DNA of 45,036 bases from Candidatus Xenobia bacterium. GTDB lineage: Bacteria > Vulcanimicrobiota > CADAWZ01. Below, piece by piece: positions 11,430 to 29,891 of this stretch. The stretch's first letter is position 1. Each line of letters starts with the position of its first letter. The translations under genes were made by a program, and so were the position numbers. The notes beneath the pieces were generated by a model. The model was given only the letters and a program-made list of their open reading frames with translations. It made no database searches and had not been told where the DNA came from. The stretch spans positions 1 to 45,036 of the forward strand of contig JAVBNT010000018.1 in the NCBI GenBank assembly GCA_031551355.1, given 5' to 3'.

Positions 11430-12920
11430 ATGAAAAGCAGCTTTAAACCGGTATTTATTCTCTTTTTATTCATTTTAGGCACAGCAATTGCCGGATGCTC
11501 CGGGGGCGGAGGCGGAGGTTCGGTTTCTTCTTCGTATGTATCTTCGGGAAACACACCTTCACCCAATCCGACCCAGACAAATACAGCCTCATCACCTTCA
11601 ATAACAAGCATGAACCCGTCCGCCGTCACTCTGGGAGCATCGGGAACAATACAGAACAACGTCACTATTTACGGCAAAAATTTCGGCACGGGCACCGGCA
11701 GCGTAACAATTGACATTCAGGCAAAAGAAATGGATGAACCCAAGGCAGCCGCGTCATGCAGCGTAGTTTCATGGAAAAACACGCAAATTACCGCGAAACT
11801 GCCGGCAAACACCGCCGCCGGAACATATAATTTATATGTCACCTCATCAACGGGAGTGAAATCGGCAGCCGTTATAATGACTGTCGCAGCATCTGATTCA
11901 CCACTGCCAATGATAACGTCAGTAGAACCGTCTGACGGAATAAACGCCAATGCCGGCCTGCCGCAAATAACCCTAAACGGCAGCAATTTCGGAACAAGCA
12001 ACGGCAATGTCTTTTTGGGAGTAGACAGCACACCAACAGCAGCGCTTAACGGAGCAGTCTGGAGCAACACAAAAATAATTATTCCCTCACAGGTAACACA
12101 AAGTATGTTAAATAAATCCAGAGCCTATTTCCAAGTAAAAAATGCCTCAGGAGTCTCATCCAACACCGTAAGTCTCGGTATCACCACAACTTCAACTCCG
12201 GTCGATGATGGAGATACAAAAGTATACGCAATGTTTACGGCCAATAAAGGCGGCAATCTCCTTGCCAGCGATAATGACGCCACTGAGTTAAGAAATGCTT
12301 TGGCTTCAGGAACGGCAAATTCCGTGTGGAACGGAGCAGACTCAACACTGCTGTTAACGCCTTCGGCAACCAAAGCGTCCACAATAAGCAAAATTAACGA
12401 GATCGCCGGCAAAGCCGATGGTAACGATATTTTCCTTTTCTACTATTCTGGCCATGGAAGCGGCGGTTCATTCAATACAATTTCTCCCTCGGAATTGTCA
12501 GCAGCCCTTTCACGGATAAACAGCGGCACCAGAAAAATAGTTATCCTTGACTGCTGTGACAGCGGCATGGCGATCGCCGGATTACAAAACGTAAGCAATA
12601 TTACAATACTTGCCTCGACAAAAACATCAGGAGTAGAGGATGCCCAGGAAGGCAGAATCAGCACTAATTACTTCTCAATGGATGCACATTCAATGACCCA
12701 CTACTCCCATGATCACGGATATCTTACATATTTTCTGCTGCGCGGATTTGGCGACAACGGCAATACGATGGGAGAGGCGGCTTCCGGCAGCAAGGTAATG
12801 CTCTCCGGCATTATTGATTATGCCTCTATACAAACAAAAAATTATGCAACCTATCTGGGTCTGAGTCAAAATCCGTCAACATTCACCAACTCCGACGATT
12901 TTATGATTAAGGGAAAATAA
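11430..12920 (+). CDS. Lipoprotein with two IPT/TIG domains and a C-terminal caspase-like (C13/C14-type) peptidase domain.
   Basis: Ribosome-binding site aaggagg. Lipobox LGTAIAGCSGGGGGGS. Two roughly 90-aa repeats of the form P.ITS..PS....G....I.G.NFGT..G.V. The catalytic dyad reads as His in FLFYYSGHG and Cys in IVILDCCDSG. Confidence 0.7.
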   Translation: MKSSFKPVFILFLFILGTAIAGCSGGGGGGSVSSSYVSSGNTPSPNPTQTNTASSPSITSMNPSAVTLGASGTIQNNVTIYGKNFGTGTGSVTIDIQAKEMDEPKAAASCSVVSWKNTQITAKLPANTAAGTYNLYVTSSTGVKSAAVIMTVAASDSPLPMITSVEPSDGINANAGLPQITLNGSNFGTSNGNVFLGVDSTPTAALNGAVWSNTKIIIPSQVTQSMLNKSRAYFQVKNASGVSSNTVSLGITTTSTPVDDGDTKVYAMFTANKGGNLLASDNDATELRNALASGTANSVWNGADSTLLLTPSATKASTISKINEIAGKADGNDIFLFYYSGHGSGGSFNTISPSELSAALSRINSGTRKIVILDCCDSGMAIAGLQNVSNITILASTKTSGVEDAQEGRISTNYFSMDAHSMTHYSHDHGYLTYFLLRGFGDNGNTMGEAASGSKVMLSGIIDYASIQTKNYATYLGLSQNPSTFTNSDDFMIKGK

Positions 12921-12944
12921 AAATTTTCAGCAATGGGGGCTGTC

Positions 12945-12974
12945 GTGCTAACGGCGGCCCCTTTAACATGGAAT
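12945..12974 (+). terminator. GC-rich hairpin ggggc-N14-gcccc followed by ttt, 25 nt after the lipoprotein stop.
   Basis: seen in sequence. Confidence 0.4.
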
Positions 12975-13097
12975 AAAAGATAACGGTCACCGGGCTTAGC
13001 CCGGCAAAACCGGTTTTGCCGGTTCAAATATAATTGTAAAAATGGTGAAAAATTAAGAAAAGAATAGCAAAAGGCTATAAAGCAAGCTATTTTTCGC

Positions 13098-13153
13098 CAT
13101 TTTCTGTCGTGCTAAGTGGGGCTAGAAAGGCCCACTTAGCACGACAGAAAATG
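13098..13153. repeat. Perfect 23-bp stem hairpin with a 10-nt loop (cattttctgtcgtgctaagtggg / cccacttagcacgacagaaaatg).
   Basis: The arms are exact reverse complements. The 12-mer ctgtcgtgctaa also occurs in the loop of the hairpin at 12945-12974. Confidence 0.6.
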
Positions 13154-13381
13154 ATACTATATAAGCGTAATCTCATCATCCAGATGAAGGTTACGCTTAT
13201 CTTCATTAATAATGGGAAAAAGTGGTCTGGTGAGCGGCCCCTTGGGCTCTGCACCCGTAAATCCTGTCAGCCGCCTTTCTTCGCTTAAGCAGGTTGAAAA
13301 CGCTTCTCGCGTCTTTCGCGTAGAGAAATGAGGGAAACATTTTTATTGCGCTTGTATTGCCGTGCTGAATAATTTTTTACA

Positions 13382-13730
13382 TATTTACTATGCAGGGGTA
13401 AAAGCCAATTGTACCGGTTCGTAATAAACGGAAGAGTGAGCGGAGGTTGGAGGATAGCCTGCCGGAGGGCTTGGGCACCTGTTTTGGTCTGTTCCTAAAG
13501 GATTCGAAGAATTCCCGCTGTTTGAGCGGTAAATGCAGAGACGGTCTCCGACCGGCTCGGAATGTGCGAGTTCGGGAATTCCCATATTTGGAACAGACCA
13601 ACTAACAGGTCAAGCCCGCAGATCGAGATATCAGGAAACCTTGGCTCACTCGGCACAGTCAAGCTCGTAGGTAGTATTTCTCTTTGACGAAAAAACAGAG
13701 GCCGTTTTTCAACGTCACCTCTGTTTTCAT
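13382..13730 (+). ncRNA. Candidate structured ncRNA built on a long imperfect palindrome (arms roughly 13434-13540 and 13546-13651), with a promoter-like site and a terminator.
   Basis: Upstream signal TTGCGC-N17-ATAATT at 13346-13374. Nested complementary segments gagtgagc/gctcactc, acctgttttggtctgttcc/ggaacagaccaactaacaggt and gaattcccg/cgggaattc all centre near 13543. An intrinsic-terminator hairpin lies at 13693-13724. No credible ORF. The RNA class is unknown, with a 6S-like rod as one possibility. Confidence 0.25.
13690..13730. terminator. Bidirectional intrinsic terminator aacagagg-N16-cctctgtt with T/A tracts on both sides.
   Basis: On the minus strand the stem is followed by ttttttcgtc, which would terminate the flotillin operon. 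On the plus strand it is followed by a T-rich tract. Confidence 0.5.
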
Positions 13731-13934
13731 ATGTTCATTTTTCTGCTATCTTATTATCTTTGTTTGCTTTTTGCTTTTCGATTTTCTCTTGACAACACAT
13801 TAGCAGGTCTTTTATATTTTCCGGAGCCATAAAAACGAATATGATTTTAGCCCATAAAATAGAGTTGCCGCGGAACACCCATTCCGCAGCAACTCCCCCC
13901 TCCCAACATTATGATGAGCAAATCTCAGGAGATT

Positions 13935-15629
13935 TTATTTTTTTAAATTTTTACCTACATTTTCACCCGGTTTAAGCGCAAACTGTCCGAGCAAATCCTC
14001 TTCACTTACCTTCATTCCCGGCTTCTGAGAGACTACTCCCAAAGGCATGTCTTTCGCTTCACCTTTTTTATGTCCGAGAATTTCCGGAAGCTCCATACCT
14101 GCAAGGTTGAAAACTTCACTGAGCGGAGGAACCGATTTCATCATACCGGAAAGAAAGTTCGCCGTAGAGGTGGAACCGTTCGCTCCATTACCGTTGTCCC
14201 AAACAGTAACTTTATCAATTTTGATGTTCTTAATCGCTTCAACCTGTGTCGCAACAAGATTCTCGATCTTATCGGCAATCATCAGTCTCATTGCATCGGT
14301 AGAACTTCCACCGGCGGCGGCAACTATCTGAGCAAGACCGGTTGCCTGTTTCGTGAGCATTTCCTGGACACCGCGGGCTTCGGCTTCCATTCTCGCATAG
14401 ATGGCATCGGCTTCACCACGGGCTTTTCTTCTGATTTGCTCGGCTTGCGCTTCTGCCTGAATTTCAAGCTCTCTTTTCTGTATTTCAGCTTTGACGATAA
14501 CGTCAGCCTGTAGTGTCGCCTGTTCTTTGGCGGCACGCGCAAGTTCTGCTTCCTGCTCGGCGGAATATGCTTCATTCAAGGCCTTGGCGGCAAGAATCTT
14601 TTCCGCGGCGATAGCTCTGCGGCGGGCCTCTGCCTGACGCTGTCTGAGTTCCGATTCCGATTCGGCAACTTTGGCCTGAGCCTCATTTTCACCGGTAATA
14701 GCTTCGGAGTCTGCAAGCGATACTTTTATACGTTGATCCCTCTGTGCATGAGCCTCACCGATAGCACCCTGTTTATCAGCCTCGGCAATGGCAATTTTTG
14801 CATCATTGATAGCCTTGGCAGCAGCTTCTTTTTGGCGTTGTTCCAAAACCGAATTTGATTCGGCAATTTTAGCCTGAGCCTCATTCTCTCCGGCAATAGC
14901 CTCCGAATCGGCATAGGAAACCTGAATACGCTGATCCCTTCTTGCATGAGCTTCACCGATAGAACCGGATCTGTCAGCCTCAGCAACTGATACTTTCGCG
15001 TCGTTGATGGCTTTTGCAGCAGCTTCTTTACCAAGAGCCGTGATATAGCCCGATTCATCAGTGATATCGGTAAGGTTGACGTTTATAAGGCGAAGACCGA
15101 TCTTTTTAAGTTCCGTTTCCACGTTTCTGGAAACCGCTTCAAGAAATTTATCCCTGTCGGTGTTAATTTCTTCAATATCCATCGTCGCAATAACAAGTCT
15201 CAGCTGACCAAAAATAATATCTTTGGCAAGATCCTGAATATCCATCAGAGTAAGTCCCAAAAGTCTTTCGGCCGCATTCTGCATAACACCCTGTTCCGTG
15301 GATATACCGACAGTAAATCTCGAAGGAACATCAATTCTGATGTTTTGCTTAGAAAGCGCGTTCTTCAGGTCAACACTTATTGAAATCGGGGTCAAATCCA
15401 TATACGCGTATTGCTGGATTACCGGCCAGACAAAAGAAGCGCCGCCGTGTATACACTTTGCAGACAAAGACGTTCCGTCAACATTAGACCCTACTTTTCC
15501 ATAGATAACCATAATTCTGTCGGACGGACACGTTCTAAAACGGGAAAAAATAAACATTACGATAGAAATTACGACAATAATCAATGCCATCACGCCAATC
15601 AAAGCCACCATATTTCCTTCCATACACAA
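13935..15629 (-). CDS. Flotillin-like SPFH/band-7 protein (FloT/YuaG-like).
   Basis: N-terminal TM helix, SPFH domain, then a long Ala/Glu-rich coiled coil with two 66-aa tandem repeats (KEAAAKAINDAK...). Confidence 0.8.
   Translation of the reverse strand: MCMEGNMVALIGVMALIIVVISIVMFIFSRFRTCPSDRIMVIYGKVGSNVDGTSLSAKCIHGGASFVWPVIQQYAYMDLTPISISVDLKNALSKQNIRIDVPSRFTVGISTEQGVMQNAAERLLGLTLMDIQDLAKDIIFGQLRLVIATMDIEEINTDRDKFLEAVSRNVETELKKIGLRLINVNLTDITDESGYITALGKEAAAKAINDAKVSVAEADRSGSIGEAHARRDQRIQVSYADSEAIAGENEAQAKIAESNSVLEQRQKEAAAKAINDAKIAIAEADKQGAIGEAHAQRDQRIKVSLADSEAITGENEAQAKVAESESELRQRQAEARRRAIAAEKILAAKALNEAYSAEQEAELARAAKEQATLQADVIVKAEIQKRELEIQAEAQAEQIRRKARGEADAIYARMEAEARGVQEMLTKQATGLAQIVAAAGGSSTDAMRLMIADKIENLVATQVEAIKNIKIDKVTVWDNGNGANGSTSTANFLSGMMKSVPPLSEVFNLAGMELPEILGHKKGEAKDMPLGVVSQKPGMKVSEEDLLGQFALKPGENVGKNLKK
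14631..15029. repeat. Intragenic 198-bp tandem duplication, two copies, inside the flotillin coiled coil.
   Basis: Protein residues 201-266 and 267-332 are about 80% identical. Confidence 0.6.
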
Positions 15630-17194: not shown

Positions 17195-18061
17195 ATGCCT
17201 AGAATTCCGCAGTGGGATTGGATCGTCAACAGAAAAAATAATTATGAAAGTCACTGTTTTGCAGTAAGAAACCGCATAATTTGCGAACAAACAGGCTTAC
17301 ACAAGGTCATGATCCTAAACACATTTGCTTACGGAGCCATGTTATTTCTTGATGACTCGCTGCAATCGAGCGAGTTGGATGAATTTATTTATCATGAAAC
17401 ATTAGTTCATCCGGCAATAATAAACACCGCTGAAAATATTTCGGTATTAATAATCGGCGGAAGTGAAGGGGCGACATTAAAAGAAGTTTTAAAACACAGA
17501 AATGTTATAAAAGCCGACATGGTGGATATTGACGGTAAACTTGTGGAAATATGCAAAGAACATCTGCTGAACTGGCACCAGGGTGCTTTTTTGGATCAAA
17601 GGGTATCCTTATTTATCGGAGACGGGCTTGAGTTTCTTAAAAAAGAAAGAAAATATGATGTTATCATTTTCGATCTTACGGAACCTTCTCCAAATTCGCA
17701 TTCAACCGGTTTATTTAGCATGGAATCACTTGAAACAGTGAAAAAAAGTCTCAATCCGGGCGGTATATTCTGCACCAATATCTGCCTGCTTGATTTGCAC
17801 GGCAACGAAATATTCAAAAAAACACTCATGGAAATAAAAAGGACTTTTGCATATGCGTATCCGTTCTGCAGTTGCATTCCGTCATTCTCCGGTCTTTTTT
17901 CCTTTGCGGTCGCATCCGACAGTAAATTCAATCCGAAAAAAACAAGCAAAAAAGAAATAAAGCAAAGAATTAAATCAGAAATCAGCGGCAAACTGCGATT
18001 CTACGATGAAAATATGCATAGAGCATTGTTCGCCCTCCCTCCGTACGTAGAAAGGCAGTGA
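17195..18061 (+). CDS. speE: Spermidine synthase-like polyamine aminopropyltransferase.
   Basis: DEFIYHETLVHP, VLIIGGSEGATLKEVLKH and MVDIDGKLVEICKEH motifs, and a Rossmann-like IIFDLTEPS segment. Confidence 0.75.
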   Translation: MPRIPQWDWIVNRKNNYESHCFAVRNRIICEQTGLHKVMILNTFAYGAMLFLDDSLQSSELDEFIYHETLVHPAIINTAENISVLIIGGSEGATLKEVLKHRNVIKADMVDIDGKLVEICKEHLLNWHQGAFLDQRVSLFIGDGLEFLKKERKYDVIIFDLTEPSPNSHSTGLFSMESLETVKKSLNPGGIFCTNICLLDLHGNEIFKKTLMEIKRTFAYAYPFCSCIPSFSGLFSFAVASDSKFNPKKTSKKEIKQRIKSEISGKLRFYDENMHRALFALPPYVERQ

Positions 18062-18077
18062 ATTGTATCCGCATGCG

Positions 18078-18150
18078 TCGCCAAAACGGAGTTGCCCTCG
18101 TTCAACGCAGTCGCACTGCGCCTCACTCGTGGCACTCCGTTTTGTCTTAG
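18078..18150. repeat. Member of a short repeat family: a conserved core, tcaacgcagtcgcactgcgcctcactcgt, flanked by a 14-bp inverted repeat, caaaacggagttgcc / ggcactccgttttg.
   Basis: The core is shared with the repeat at 27595-27727. The hairpin followed by a T-rich tract probably terminates speE. Confidence 0.5.
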
Positions 18151-18460
18151 CCTTCGGACACAATTGACTGCCTTTTGGTCACTGGGAAAGATAAAAGACT
18201 ACGCTCCGTTCGTCGCATTCCTGTTTGTCTTAGGTCCTTCACCTATTTGAGCGTCTCTAAAGCTATTGATAACTATAATATAATTAAGCGCGACATTTAA
18301 CGGGCTACGCCTCACTCGTCGAAATCCAAATAGCCTTAACCTACGGACACAATTGACTGCCTTTTGGTCACTGGGAAAGATAAAAGACTACGCTCCGTTC
18401 GCCGCAATCCTGTTTGTCTTAGGTCCTTCACCTATTTGAGTACCTCTATAAGCTGTTGGA
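18112..18460. repeat. Two tandem copies of a ~188-bp unit. The ~107 bp cores at 18156-18262 and 18344-18450 differ at 2 positions.
   Basis: ggacacaattgactgccttttggtcactgggaaagataaaagactacgctccgttcg(t/c)cgca(t/a)tcctgtttgtcttaggtccttcacctatttgag is repeated, and each copy is preceded by a gcgcctcactcgt-type segment. Confidence 0.65.
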
Positions 18461-27590: not shown

Positions 27591-27594
27591 CCCA

Positions 27595-27727
27595 AATCCG
27601 CTGAAACAGGCGAATCTGCGTCGTCAAATTGAATATTCGCTCGCTCAACGCAGTCTGGCTGCGCCTCGCTTGTCGAAATTCAATTTGCCATAGCATCTCC
27701 GCCTGTTTCAGCGGATTTGTTTTTTTA
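27595..27727. repeat. Repeat family member with 19-bp terminal inverted repeats, aaatccgctgaaacaggcg / cgcctgtttcagcggattt, followed by gttttttt.
   Basis: Core ctcaacgcagtctggctgcgcctcgcttgtcgaaattcaatttgcc is related to 18098-18130 and 18306-18336. Likely also acts as a terminator for the efflux operon. Confidence 0.55.
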
Positions 27728-27734
27728 GATGTAA

Positions 27735-29324
27735 CTATTTTTCAATATTTGGTGTATATGCAATTATTGCTTGAACAAATTTTCTTGCTTCCTCAAGCTT
27801 CGCTTCCTTGGCCAAATCATAATTTTCTAAAATATAATAGACCCATTCTTTCTTTTCCTTATTAACAGTCTTGTCAAAACACTCCATTTCTCCGACAGGA
27901 ACTATAAACAATCCCGTTGCTCGACAAACCGATTCCACAGATTCATAAGCCTTAGGAGCCTCACCCGTAAAACTTGCTTTACCAATTTTCTTGATGCCGT
28001 CCCAAGCGTTATTTGTATTATTGTTTGCATTTATAGTGTCATAAATAATTTTCATATTTGCTGACAATAATGAACCATAATCTTTGCCAAACGCTGTGAC
28101 AATTTCTTTAAATTTTCTACTATCATTAAGTACATCAAAATCAAATACTGCAACTACTGAAACATTTACAGCTTTTAGCGCCGATACAATACTATGAATA
28201 CGGTCTTTCCCTCCGCAATGTGTAAAGAGTATATCCGGGGCTATTTCTCCCCTGCTCTCAGACATTGCATCCATTATAGCCTGATAAAAAAGACAATCAT
28301 AATCACTCTCACAGACAACAACTTTATCATGAAACAATCCGCTTAAAATATTTGAATACCGTAAAATTGGACTACTCCATAATTTTTTTATATTTTCGCT
28401 TTTCAAAACGCTCATATGGTTTATTGACTCTTGCCGGTCAATACGGATTATCGTTACATTTTCATTCTCCGCATCAAGTAAACCCTGTAAAAAATCTTCG
28501 CTATGAGTGGAGATAAACAACTGTCGTTTACTGGGGTTATATTTCGCCAACAACTTTCCAAGAAGTCGAGCCTGCGGAGGATGTAAAAAAGCTTCAGGTT
28601 CATCAATAAGGGTTAATGAATGTTCTGATGTAAAATTATCCAATAGTACACTGGCAAAACTACGCATCCCATCACCTTGAGTATCAAGTTTAGGAAGCTG
28701 TGCTACTTTATTGTAAAAGACACCTTCATCATTCATTTTCAGCGTATCACGATCCGGAGGATTTCCCACATGTAACGACACTAATTGCCCTGCCCGTCTA
28801 TTAACAACAAGCTTTTCTCCAAACGCTTCAAAAAAGAAACGGGAAATCAAAGCTTCTTTTTCGTTATCTTCATAAACCGTATGTAACGAGTTGCGTACTT
28901 CATGTGGAGAAATGCCGAACAACGGCTTTGATTCAGAAACAGTAAGGCGCTCTTTTGTATCAAGTCTGCCTACAAAAAGTGCAGAAAGATTATACAAACT
29001 ACTGCTACTCCAATTACTCTGCCACTGTGATAGAGGGGCGCCGTTATTCCCAATCCAAATGTTGCCTTGCTCATCGCTTCTCCGATGAGCAAGAATAAAC
29101 TTATCGTCTAAATTACCAACACGGGTTATATTCAAGTTTTCAGCAATAATCGAAAGACTTTGGGGATTTTTTATCTGGTTCTCAATATCCCTTAACACCT
29201 GACTTTTTCCACTATTGTTTGCACCTGTAAAAACCACAATACTATTTTGGTCTAGCGATAGCTCCGTGCCATCATTAAATTTTATGCTACTTACAAATAC
29301 CCGTGGTTTCTGTTGCTCTGACAT
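27735..29324 (-). CDS. OLD-family (GajA-like) ABC-type ATPase fused to a TOPRIM-like nuclease domain. Putative defence endonuclease.
   Basis: P-loop VFTGANNSGKSQVL, Q/signature-like DGMRSFASVLL, Walker B plus D-loop LTLIDEPEAFLHP, H-loop ISTHSEDF. The C-terminal acidic motifs VVVCESDYD and VVAVFDFDVLND fit TOPRIM. The gene is visibly more AT-rich than its neighbours. Confidence 0.6.
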   Translation of the reverse strand: MSEQQKPRVFVSSIKFNDGTELSLDQNSIVVFTGANNSGKSQVLRDIENQIKNPQSLSIIAENLNITRVGNLDDKFILAHRRSDEQGNIWIGNNGAPLSQWQSNWSSSSLYNLSALFVGRLDTKERLTVSESKPLFGISPHEVRNSLHTVYEDNEKEALISRFFFEAFGEKLVVNRRAGQLVSLHVGNPPDRDTLKMNDEGVFYNKVAQLPKLDTQGDGMRSFASVLLDNFTSEHSLTLIDEPEAFLHPPQARLLGKLLAKYNPSKRQLFISTHSEDFLQGLLDAENENVTIIRIDRQESINHMSVLKSENIKKLWSSPILRYSNILSGLFHDKVVVCESDYDCLFYQAIMDAMSESRGEIAPDILFTHCGGKDRIHSIVSALKAVNVSVVAVFDFDVLNDSRKFKEIVTAFGKDYGSLLSANMKIIYDTINANNNTNNAWDGIKKIGKASFTGEAPKAYESVESVCRATGLFIVPVGEMECFDKTVNKEKKEWVYYILENYDLAKEAKLEEARKFVQAIIAYTPNIEK

Positions 29325-29744
29325 AAATAATTCTCCTATCTATCTTTCAAACAAGCATATTAAAACAAAACACCATACACTGAAATAGTAACATAAAAAA
29401 GTCTGTAATGATTCAATTACTATAAAACCTTGAAAATAATCATAAATTGCCATTACGCACTTGATGCGGAATCCAGGGGACTAATGCTTCATTCGACTTG
29501 AGTATCCAATACTCCAACAGCTAAAAGCCAAGATGGATTACCGCCGGAGTTTATCCTCGTGAAAATGGGGATCATAATGACAGATGTCTACTATCAGTTG
29601 CAGACTGATGAGCTTAATTGTGTGTTAAGGCGTAGTCTTAACTACCATGACTTTGGCGACGATAGTTCGCCGATTTTCGGTAGGGCAAACTGATGCGCTG
29701 AATTGTTTGCGAAGGCTATGGCAAATAGGATTTCGACAACTTTC

Positions 29745-29880
29745 CAAAATAAAAAAATCGATTCAAACAGGCGGAAATGTTAAGGCAAATTTAATTTCTA
29801 CGACTGAGGCGTAGTATACTACGTCGCAGGGAGAGAAATTGAATTTGACGACACAGGTTCGCCTGTTTCAATCGATTTCA
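29745..29880. repeat. Repeat family member with terminal inverted repeats aaatcgattcaaacaggcgg / cgcctgtttcaatcgattt and an internal 14-bp perfect palindrome cgtagtatactacg.
   Basis: Shares the gaaacaggcg-type termini and gaaattgaatttgacgac-type core with 27595-27727. On the minus strand it is followed by tttttttatttt, a terminator-like tract for the VOC gene. Confidence 0.5.
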
Positions 29881-29891
29881 GCGCATCAGGG

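Follow-up and report, generated by a model that had tools for sequence, protein, structure and literature searches.

What is the long imperfect palindrome that lies between two converging genes of this genome: a gene for a structured RNA, a hairpin element carried in the DNA, or an accident of decay or assembly? The initial annotation of the window (throughout, the whole 45-kb stretch of DNA that was analyzed) had proposed a rod-like noncoding RNA, possibly 6S-like, and had named a palindromic mobile element as the alternative.

The Fold of the Hairpin

The four pairs of complementary segments on which that proposal was built are all present where they had been placed: the outer arms GAGTGAGC (13434-13441) and GCTCACTC (13644-13651); GGGCTTG (13467-13473) and CAAGCCC (13611-13617); ACCTGTTTTGGTCTGTTCC (13477-13495) and GGAACAGACCAA-CT-AACAGGT (13590-13610), which pair over 7 + 12 bp with a 2-nt bulge; and GAATTCCCG (13509-13517) and CGGGAATTC (13573-13581). 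Nested about a common centre at ~13543, they form an imperfect hairpin of 218 nt, in good agreement with the long irregular hairpin of ~220 nt that had been predicted. Its G+C content is 54%, against 40-43% in the flanks. The minimum free energy (MFE) fold divides this rod into four parts:

13434-13448 / 13637-13651, no strand assigned: closing stem of 8 + 6 bp (MFE fold)
between the closing stem and the long helix: looser pairing, interrupted by a 4-nt bulge and by internal loops of 4x4 and 2x7 (MFE fold)
13467-13495 / 13590-13617: near-perfect helix of 26 bp (7 + 7 + 12 bp, nearly continuous; MFE fold)
13496-13589, no strand assigned: branched apical domain of 94 nt

The hairpin is real and nonrandom, and its stability lies far beyond chance. 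On the + strand, 13434-13651 folds with an MFE of -100.4 kcal/mol, compared with -69.8 +/- 4.8 for dinucleotide shuffles (z = -6.4); on the - strand, the values are -89.2 and -59.7 +/- 4.5 kcal/mol (z = -6.5). In absolute terms, the + strand fold is more stable by 11 kcal/mol, and the equal z-scores on the two strands are as expected for a palindrome at the DNA level. When the 356-nt region around the rod was shuffled, no shuffle gave an equally good fold. The pairing is confined to the rod itself: outside 13434-13651, the flanks pair no better than chance (flank duplex p = 0.4). In a sliding 220-nt fold scan of the window, the rod is among ~7 strongly structured spots, though not the strongest of them.

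More telling than the energy is the distribution of the mismatches. When the 5' arm is compared with the reverse complement of the 3' arm, the outer ~56 bp contain a single G-U pair and zero mismatches within helices, and G-U pairs make up only 3 of the 75 bp of the whole rod. All differences between the arms are clustered in noncomplementary loops that are unequal in length between the arms. Such perfect helices with uneven loops are what a selected or maintained stem-loop leaves; a perfect repeat in decay or an artifact of fold-back would not give this pattern. The apical domain (13496-13589) is less settled and has two competing folds, one using the helix of GAATTCCCG and CGGGAATTC (13509-13517 / 13573-13581) and the other using GGAUUCG/CGAGUUC plus AUUCC/GGAAU; it also holds a 10-bp perfect palindrome, GGGAATTCCC (13574-13583), and a central GAGAC-G-GTCTC (13538-13548).

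A noncoding role is the only sensible one for the rod. The longest open reading frame of the region has 74 aa, an exact look-up of 10 ORFs from the region found none on record as a called gene, and its six-frame pseudo-protein gave no match among 5.8 billion proteins; the earlier view that the region holds no credible ORF and is followed by more than 3 kb with no + strand gene is borne out, the first downstream gene on that strand to match Pfam lying at 17195. As a test for relatives of the rod, protein records are insensitive because the locus itself has no called ORF.

The Surroundings of the Hairpin

The rod occupies a spacer of ~1 kb between two converging chromosomal genes. The features that matter for its possible expression are the following:

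11430-12920, + strand: gene for a lipoprotein with TIG and caspase domains
13097-13155, no strand assigned: near-perfect 26-bp hairpin at the left edge of the island 13156-13691 (inverted-repeat scan)
13346-13374, + strand: weak promoter-like site, TTGCGC (13346-13351) followed by AATAAT at N16 or ATAATT at N17 (read from the sequence)
13692-13727, no strand assigned: terminator-like hairpin AAAACAGAGG / CCTCTGTTTT, with 10-bp perfect arms and a 16-nt loop that contains an inner 4-bp stem
13861-13896, - strand: terminator of the flotillin gene
13935-15629, - strand: flotillin gene

The spacer is a chain of hairpins, and the stretch directly upstream of the rod (12921-13440) reaches z = -7.8. 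Two of these hairpins, 12935-12962 and 13097-13155, close off transcription from the upstream + strand gene; the 12-mer CTGTCGTGCTAA is shared by the former and the two arms of the latter's 26-bp stem. On the other side, the rod is not simply the 3' end of the flotillin operon because the terminator at 13861-13896 lies between. The rod thus sits inside an island of 536 nt (13156-13691) that is closed on both sides by terminator-like stems. The island is insulated from both converging genes, and any role at the level of RNA therefore needs a promoter of its own.

The promoter that had been proposed, TTGCGC-N17-ATAATT, does exist ~60 nt upstream of the rod, but it is a weak one, with hexamer matches of 3/6 (-35) and 5/6. 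This is below the threshold of our consensus promoter scan (at least 4/6 matches per hexamer), which did not report it. Downstream of the rod, the same scan found a near-consensus sigma-70-type promoter, TTGACA-N18-TATATT (11/12), at 13789-13818 on the + strand; it points into the 3' end and the terminator of the opposite-strand flotillin gene and could drive an antisense RNA or a 44-aa ORF at 13841-13975. Strong sigma-70-type sites do, therefore, occur at the locus.

The strong stem with a T-tract that had been noted at 13693-13730 is real; the T-tract behind it is TTTT if read on the + strand and TTTTTT if read on the - strand. As a terminator it would be bidirectional and somewhat better for the - strand and therefore does not fix the strand of a transcript. 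A simple terminator scan missed this stem because of the size of its loop. Several terminators of the window have perfect stems of 17-26 bp; the terminator-like hairpins at 37763-37815, 42513-42550 and 13097-13155 combine such unusually long stems with weak or absent T-tracts, and a simple scan misses most terminators of this kind for these reasons.

Duplications are seen in the neighboring gene and elsewhere in the window. The flotillin gene has an internal tandem duplication of 181 nt (14651-14831 / 14849-15029, 77% identical), which corresponds to a repeated EAAAKAINDAK...GEAHA..RDQRI segment; because of it, this flotillin and those most closely related to it exceed most homologues by ~90 aa (~560 vs. 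~470 aa). Two adjacent paralogous genes of the metallo-beta-lactamase fold (38986-39732 and 39751-40518) have 66% DNA identity over 570 nt.

Relatives and Copies

The host, an uncultured organism, has a flotillin whose closest matches carry the label of Clostridia or Clostridiales metagenome-assembled genomes, and the window encodes a TolC-like outer-membrane efflux protein. Every protein that was looked up from the window is a singleton at 90% identity, and searches with the flotillin and the caspase-like lipoprotein gave two relatives only, SRR13155362 and ERZ27245259 (~76% and ~55% amino-acid identity), the flotillin identity to these relatives being ~76%. In both, a 196-aa lipoprotein gene with ~100-nt spacers lies downstream of the flotillin gene, and the caspase-like genes are in a different neighborhood; the window holds no pseudogene remnant of the 196-aa lipoprotein gene. 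No similarity to the rod was seen in 53 kb from the two relatives, and the rod is absent from the syntenic spot in both, an outcome that the initial annotation had itself named as counting against its noncoding RNA. This absence fits an insertion or a lineage-specific element.

Further copies of the rod were sought widely. The window has no second copy; distant-mode blastn with the 401-nt region gave 0 matches in 72,556 plasmids and 50,697 phage records; an exact scan for a 20-mer of the helix gave 0 matches in GTDB genomes and JGI metagenomes; and a search for the two-arm pattern gave 0 matches in IMG/VR. A central 21-mer did have 14 matches in metagenomes; these all lie in coding DNA of 63-73% G+C (...ETVSDRL...) and show no relation to the rod outside the 21-mer. 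In Logan, contigs of the same organism match the flanks at 100% and end at ~12965 and ~13694. Such ends could reflect repeats or strain variation, but they are uninformative about the rod because other contig ends fall inside ordinary genes.

Other Palindromes in the Window

The rod is not alone. By an inverted-repeat scan and a self-blast of the window, we found at least four other long palindromic hairpins, giving roughly one long palindrome per 9 kb; they are listed here together with a copy from a relative:

382-582: rod-like hairpin of 201 nt, its helices nested and its outer stem perfect over 23 bp
29690-29889: long palindromic hairpin of 200 nt
18051-18175, 27593-27719 and 29755-29878: hairpins of ~125 nt that form one family (the E family, copies E1-E3)
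133-266 of contig L007, from a relative: E-family copy, plus a partial tandem copy at 3-129

The hairpin at 382-582 is clearly strand asymmetric: its + strand folds at -74.8 kcal/mol with 6 G-U pairs, and its - strand at -63.5 kcal/mol with none. A direct repeat of 50 nt (312-361 / 706-754, 82% identical) lies on either side of it.

In the E family, the arms differ between copies and yet stay complementary: across the four sequences, 25 of 42 pairs show compensatory change. The centre is conserved (ACGCAGT...ACTGCGCCTCACTCGT), G-U pairs are nearly missing (0-3 of 44-49 bp), and the hairpins sit at gene ends. The copy on L007 belongs to a relative at about the 76% amino-acid level. The family has no counterpart in Rfam, and a pattern scan of GTDB genomes returned chance matches only. 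Two of its hairpins (27593-27719 and 29755-29878) bracket a typical defense-type gene, an OLD-family AAA/TOPRIM nuclease (27735-29324, - strand), in inverted orientation and are 78% identical as reverse complements. A 154-nt direct repeat (18116-18268 / 18305-18458, 88% identical) overlaps the 3' half of E1, and one of the organism's Logan contigs breaks within this repeat (~18185).

The rod is not a member of this family. Against R1, a covariance model built from E1-E3 and the L007 copy, its segment 13476-13611 reaches 9.9 bits (E = 5.4), the level of ordinary terminators, while members score 110-145 bits. Local alignment of the rod with all other hairpins of the window was likewise no better than with shuffles.

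Known RNA Families

Rfam 15 gave no match anywhere in the window at the gathering threshold, and relaxing the limit to E<=10 for slices of 1001 and 341 nt returned generic hairpin and miRNA noise, with no 6S, SRP, RNase P or tmRNA; ARAGORN found no tRNA or tmRNA in the window. The earlier failure to match RNase P, tmRNA or SRP is thereby upheld, but not the 6S-like reading; the lack of an Rfam match is among the outcomes that the initial annotation had named as counting against its proposal. A large central bubble is the defining trait of 6S RNA, and the bubble that had been read into the rod is not there: in the MFE and centroid folds, the largest internal loops are 4x4 and 2x7. With no match to RF00013 even at E<=10 in 341 nt, no large central bubble and no conserved locus in the relatives, the rod is not 6S RNA, and the label should be dropped. 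The rod is an orphan that fits no described family.

Discussion

We tentatively read the rod as a palindromic intergenic hairpin element. The intergenic DNA of this organism would then hold several kinds of imperfect palindrome that are long (125-220 nt), strand symmetric and poor in G-U pairs, the rod being one of them and resembling the ERIC, REP and MITE types as a nonautonomous and probably low-copy repeat. Such an element may have an effect only when its region is single-stranded or transcribed; the stem-loop could then act as a barrier to 3' exonucleases, as a site for RNase III or as a block to transcription between the converging genes. This reading gains weight because the window holds several other long palindromic hairpins, among them the E family, whose G-U-poor style is the same as that of the rod. 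The rod itself is an imperfect palindrome that folds on either strand, is noncoding and lies between genes, as palindromic repeats of the MITE kind do, and terminal repeats could be provided by its outer arms, GAGTGAGC and GCTCACTC. Rfam has no family for it, its promoter is unconvincing and its terminator leaves the strand ambiguous, all in line with a feature of the DNA.

Other observations weigh against the palindromic element. The many copies of the rod itself, which the initial annotation had taken as the mark of a MITE, were found neither in the window nor in the plasmid, phage, GTDB, JGI and IMG/VR scans. The rod stands outside the E family and is similar to none of the other hairpins, no target-site duplication is evident around it (the flanks are ACGGAA and GGCACA), and genes for a transposase, integrase, Rep, relaxase or reverse transcriptase are absent from the 45-kb window. 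Finally, the insulated island, the order of the promoter-like and terminator-like sites and the G+C content of 54% would all suit a + strand small RNA.

A stand-alone + strand small RNA gene of an undescribed family is nearly as likely, and the two readings remain close. It is predicted to start from the promoter at 13346-13374 and to terminate at 13692-13733, giving a primary transcript of ~350 nt with the 218-nt rod as its core, which might act as a protein-binding or double-stranded-RNA-like scaffold. The insulation of the island by hairpin terminators, the correct order and spacing of the promoter-like and terminator-like sites, the contrast in G+C with the flanks, the perfect helices with indels in their noncomplementary loops and the lead of the + strand fold all point in this direction. 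Each of the signals for transcription has, however, its weakness: the promoter is below threshold at 3/6 and 5/6, whereas an 11/12 promoter exists nearby at 13789-13818, and the T-tract is better on the - strand. The shuffle z-scores are equal on the two strands, the rod has very few G-U pairs for an RNA, and no homologue was found in the searched collections. GGA triplets are mildly enriched (9 vs. 4.9 expected, p = 0.03), but only three of them clearly stand outside paired stretches and the GGA/TCC asymmetry falls short of significance, leaving the case for a CsrA-type sponge weak. That the rod is the core of such a ~350-nt transcript and works specifically as a mimic of double-stranded nucleic acid or as a protein sponge seems unlikely; such an RNA would be a functional analogue of the 6S/Ms1 or CsrB-type RNAs and not homologous to them.

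We consider it improbable that the rod is a functionless relic, for example of a decayed inverted duplication, or a fold-back artifact of the assembly. Its being known as a single instance would suit either, as would the fact that the independent Logan contigs that reached the locus stop outside the hairpin. Random decay, however, would not confine the mismatches to loops of unequal arm length and leave 56 bp of helix flawless. A fold-back artifact, in turn, would be a perfect palindrome, typically at the end of a contig, whereas the rod is imperfect and internal, with flanks that match the Logan contigs at 100%.

Least probable by far is a divergent 6S RNA or a 6S/Ms1-like rod predicted to bind RNA polymerase: the long irregular shape, the roughly right size and an alternative fold with a 13x8 internal loop (13496-13508 / 13582-13589) between the long helix and the GAATTCCCG helix speak for it, but RF00013 does not match at the gathering threshold or at E<=10 (in a search of only 341 nt), the MFE and centroid folds lack a large central bubble, a branched domain of 94 nt takes the place of a simple terminal stem-loop at the apex, the two ends of the predicted transcript do not pair with each other outside the rod, and the locus shows no conservation in the nearest relatives.

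The rod is a modest finding on a single sequence. As one more hairpin of the palindromic intergenic kind, it would be of little consequence alone; what it adds to is the picture of a poorly sampled lineage that carries an unusual load of structured palindromes, including at least one family with strong compensatory change that is absent from Rfam. Should it prove to be a rod-like small RNA that stands alone, it would be the founding member of a new RNA family, from an uncultured lineage and known here from a single sequence.

Comparison with Known Systems

Among the systems with which the rod can be compared, the single-strand origins (sso) of rolling-circle plasmids and ICEs are also imperfect palindromes of ~200 nt whose working form would be folded single-stranded DNA; unlike them, the rod lacks the CS-6 motif (TAGCGT), has no Rep, relaxase, plasmid or ICE genes around it in 45 kb and gave no blastn match in 72,556 plasmids. 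With 6S RNA (RF00013) and the 6S-like Ms1 RNA it shares the irregular hairpin of ~200 nt, the noncoding nature and the terminator-like stem that follows, and it differs in that it gave no covariance-model match even at E<=10, lacks a large central bubble, ends in a branched apex of 94 nt, contains hardly any G-U pairs and is not conserved in relatives. The E family is closer in style, with long perfect helices, small loops, few G-U pairs, a G+C content at or above the genome average and a location between gene ends, although the rod is longer (218 vs. 125 nt), scores only 9.9 bits on R1 and has no significant pairwise similarity to it. The ERIC/IRU, REP/BIME, Correia, RUP and bcr1-type (MITE-like) sequences are intergenic imperfect palindromes of 100-250 bp near gene ends, noncoding and present in many copies. 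In comparison with the ERIC, REP and MITE types, the rod occurs once in the 45-kb window, with no evident target-site duplication and no partner transposase there, and has no similarity to described families in the searched collections; it is like them in folding equally well on both strands, in lying between genes and in being noncoding, and it resides in a genome that carries at least one multicopy family of such hairpins.
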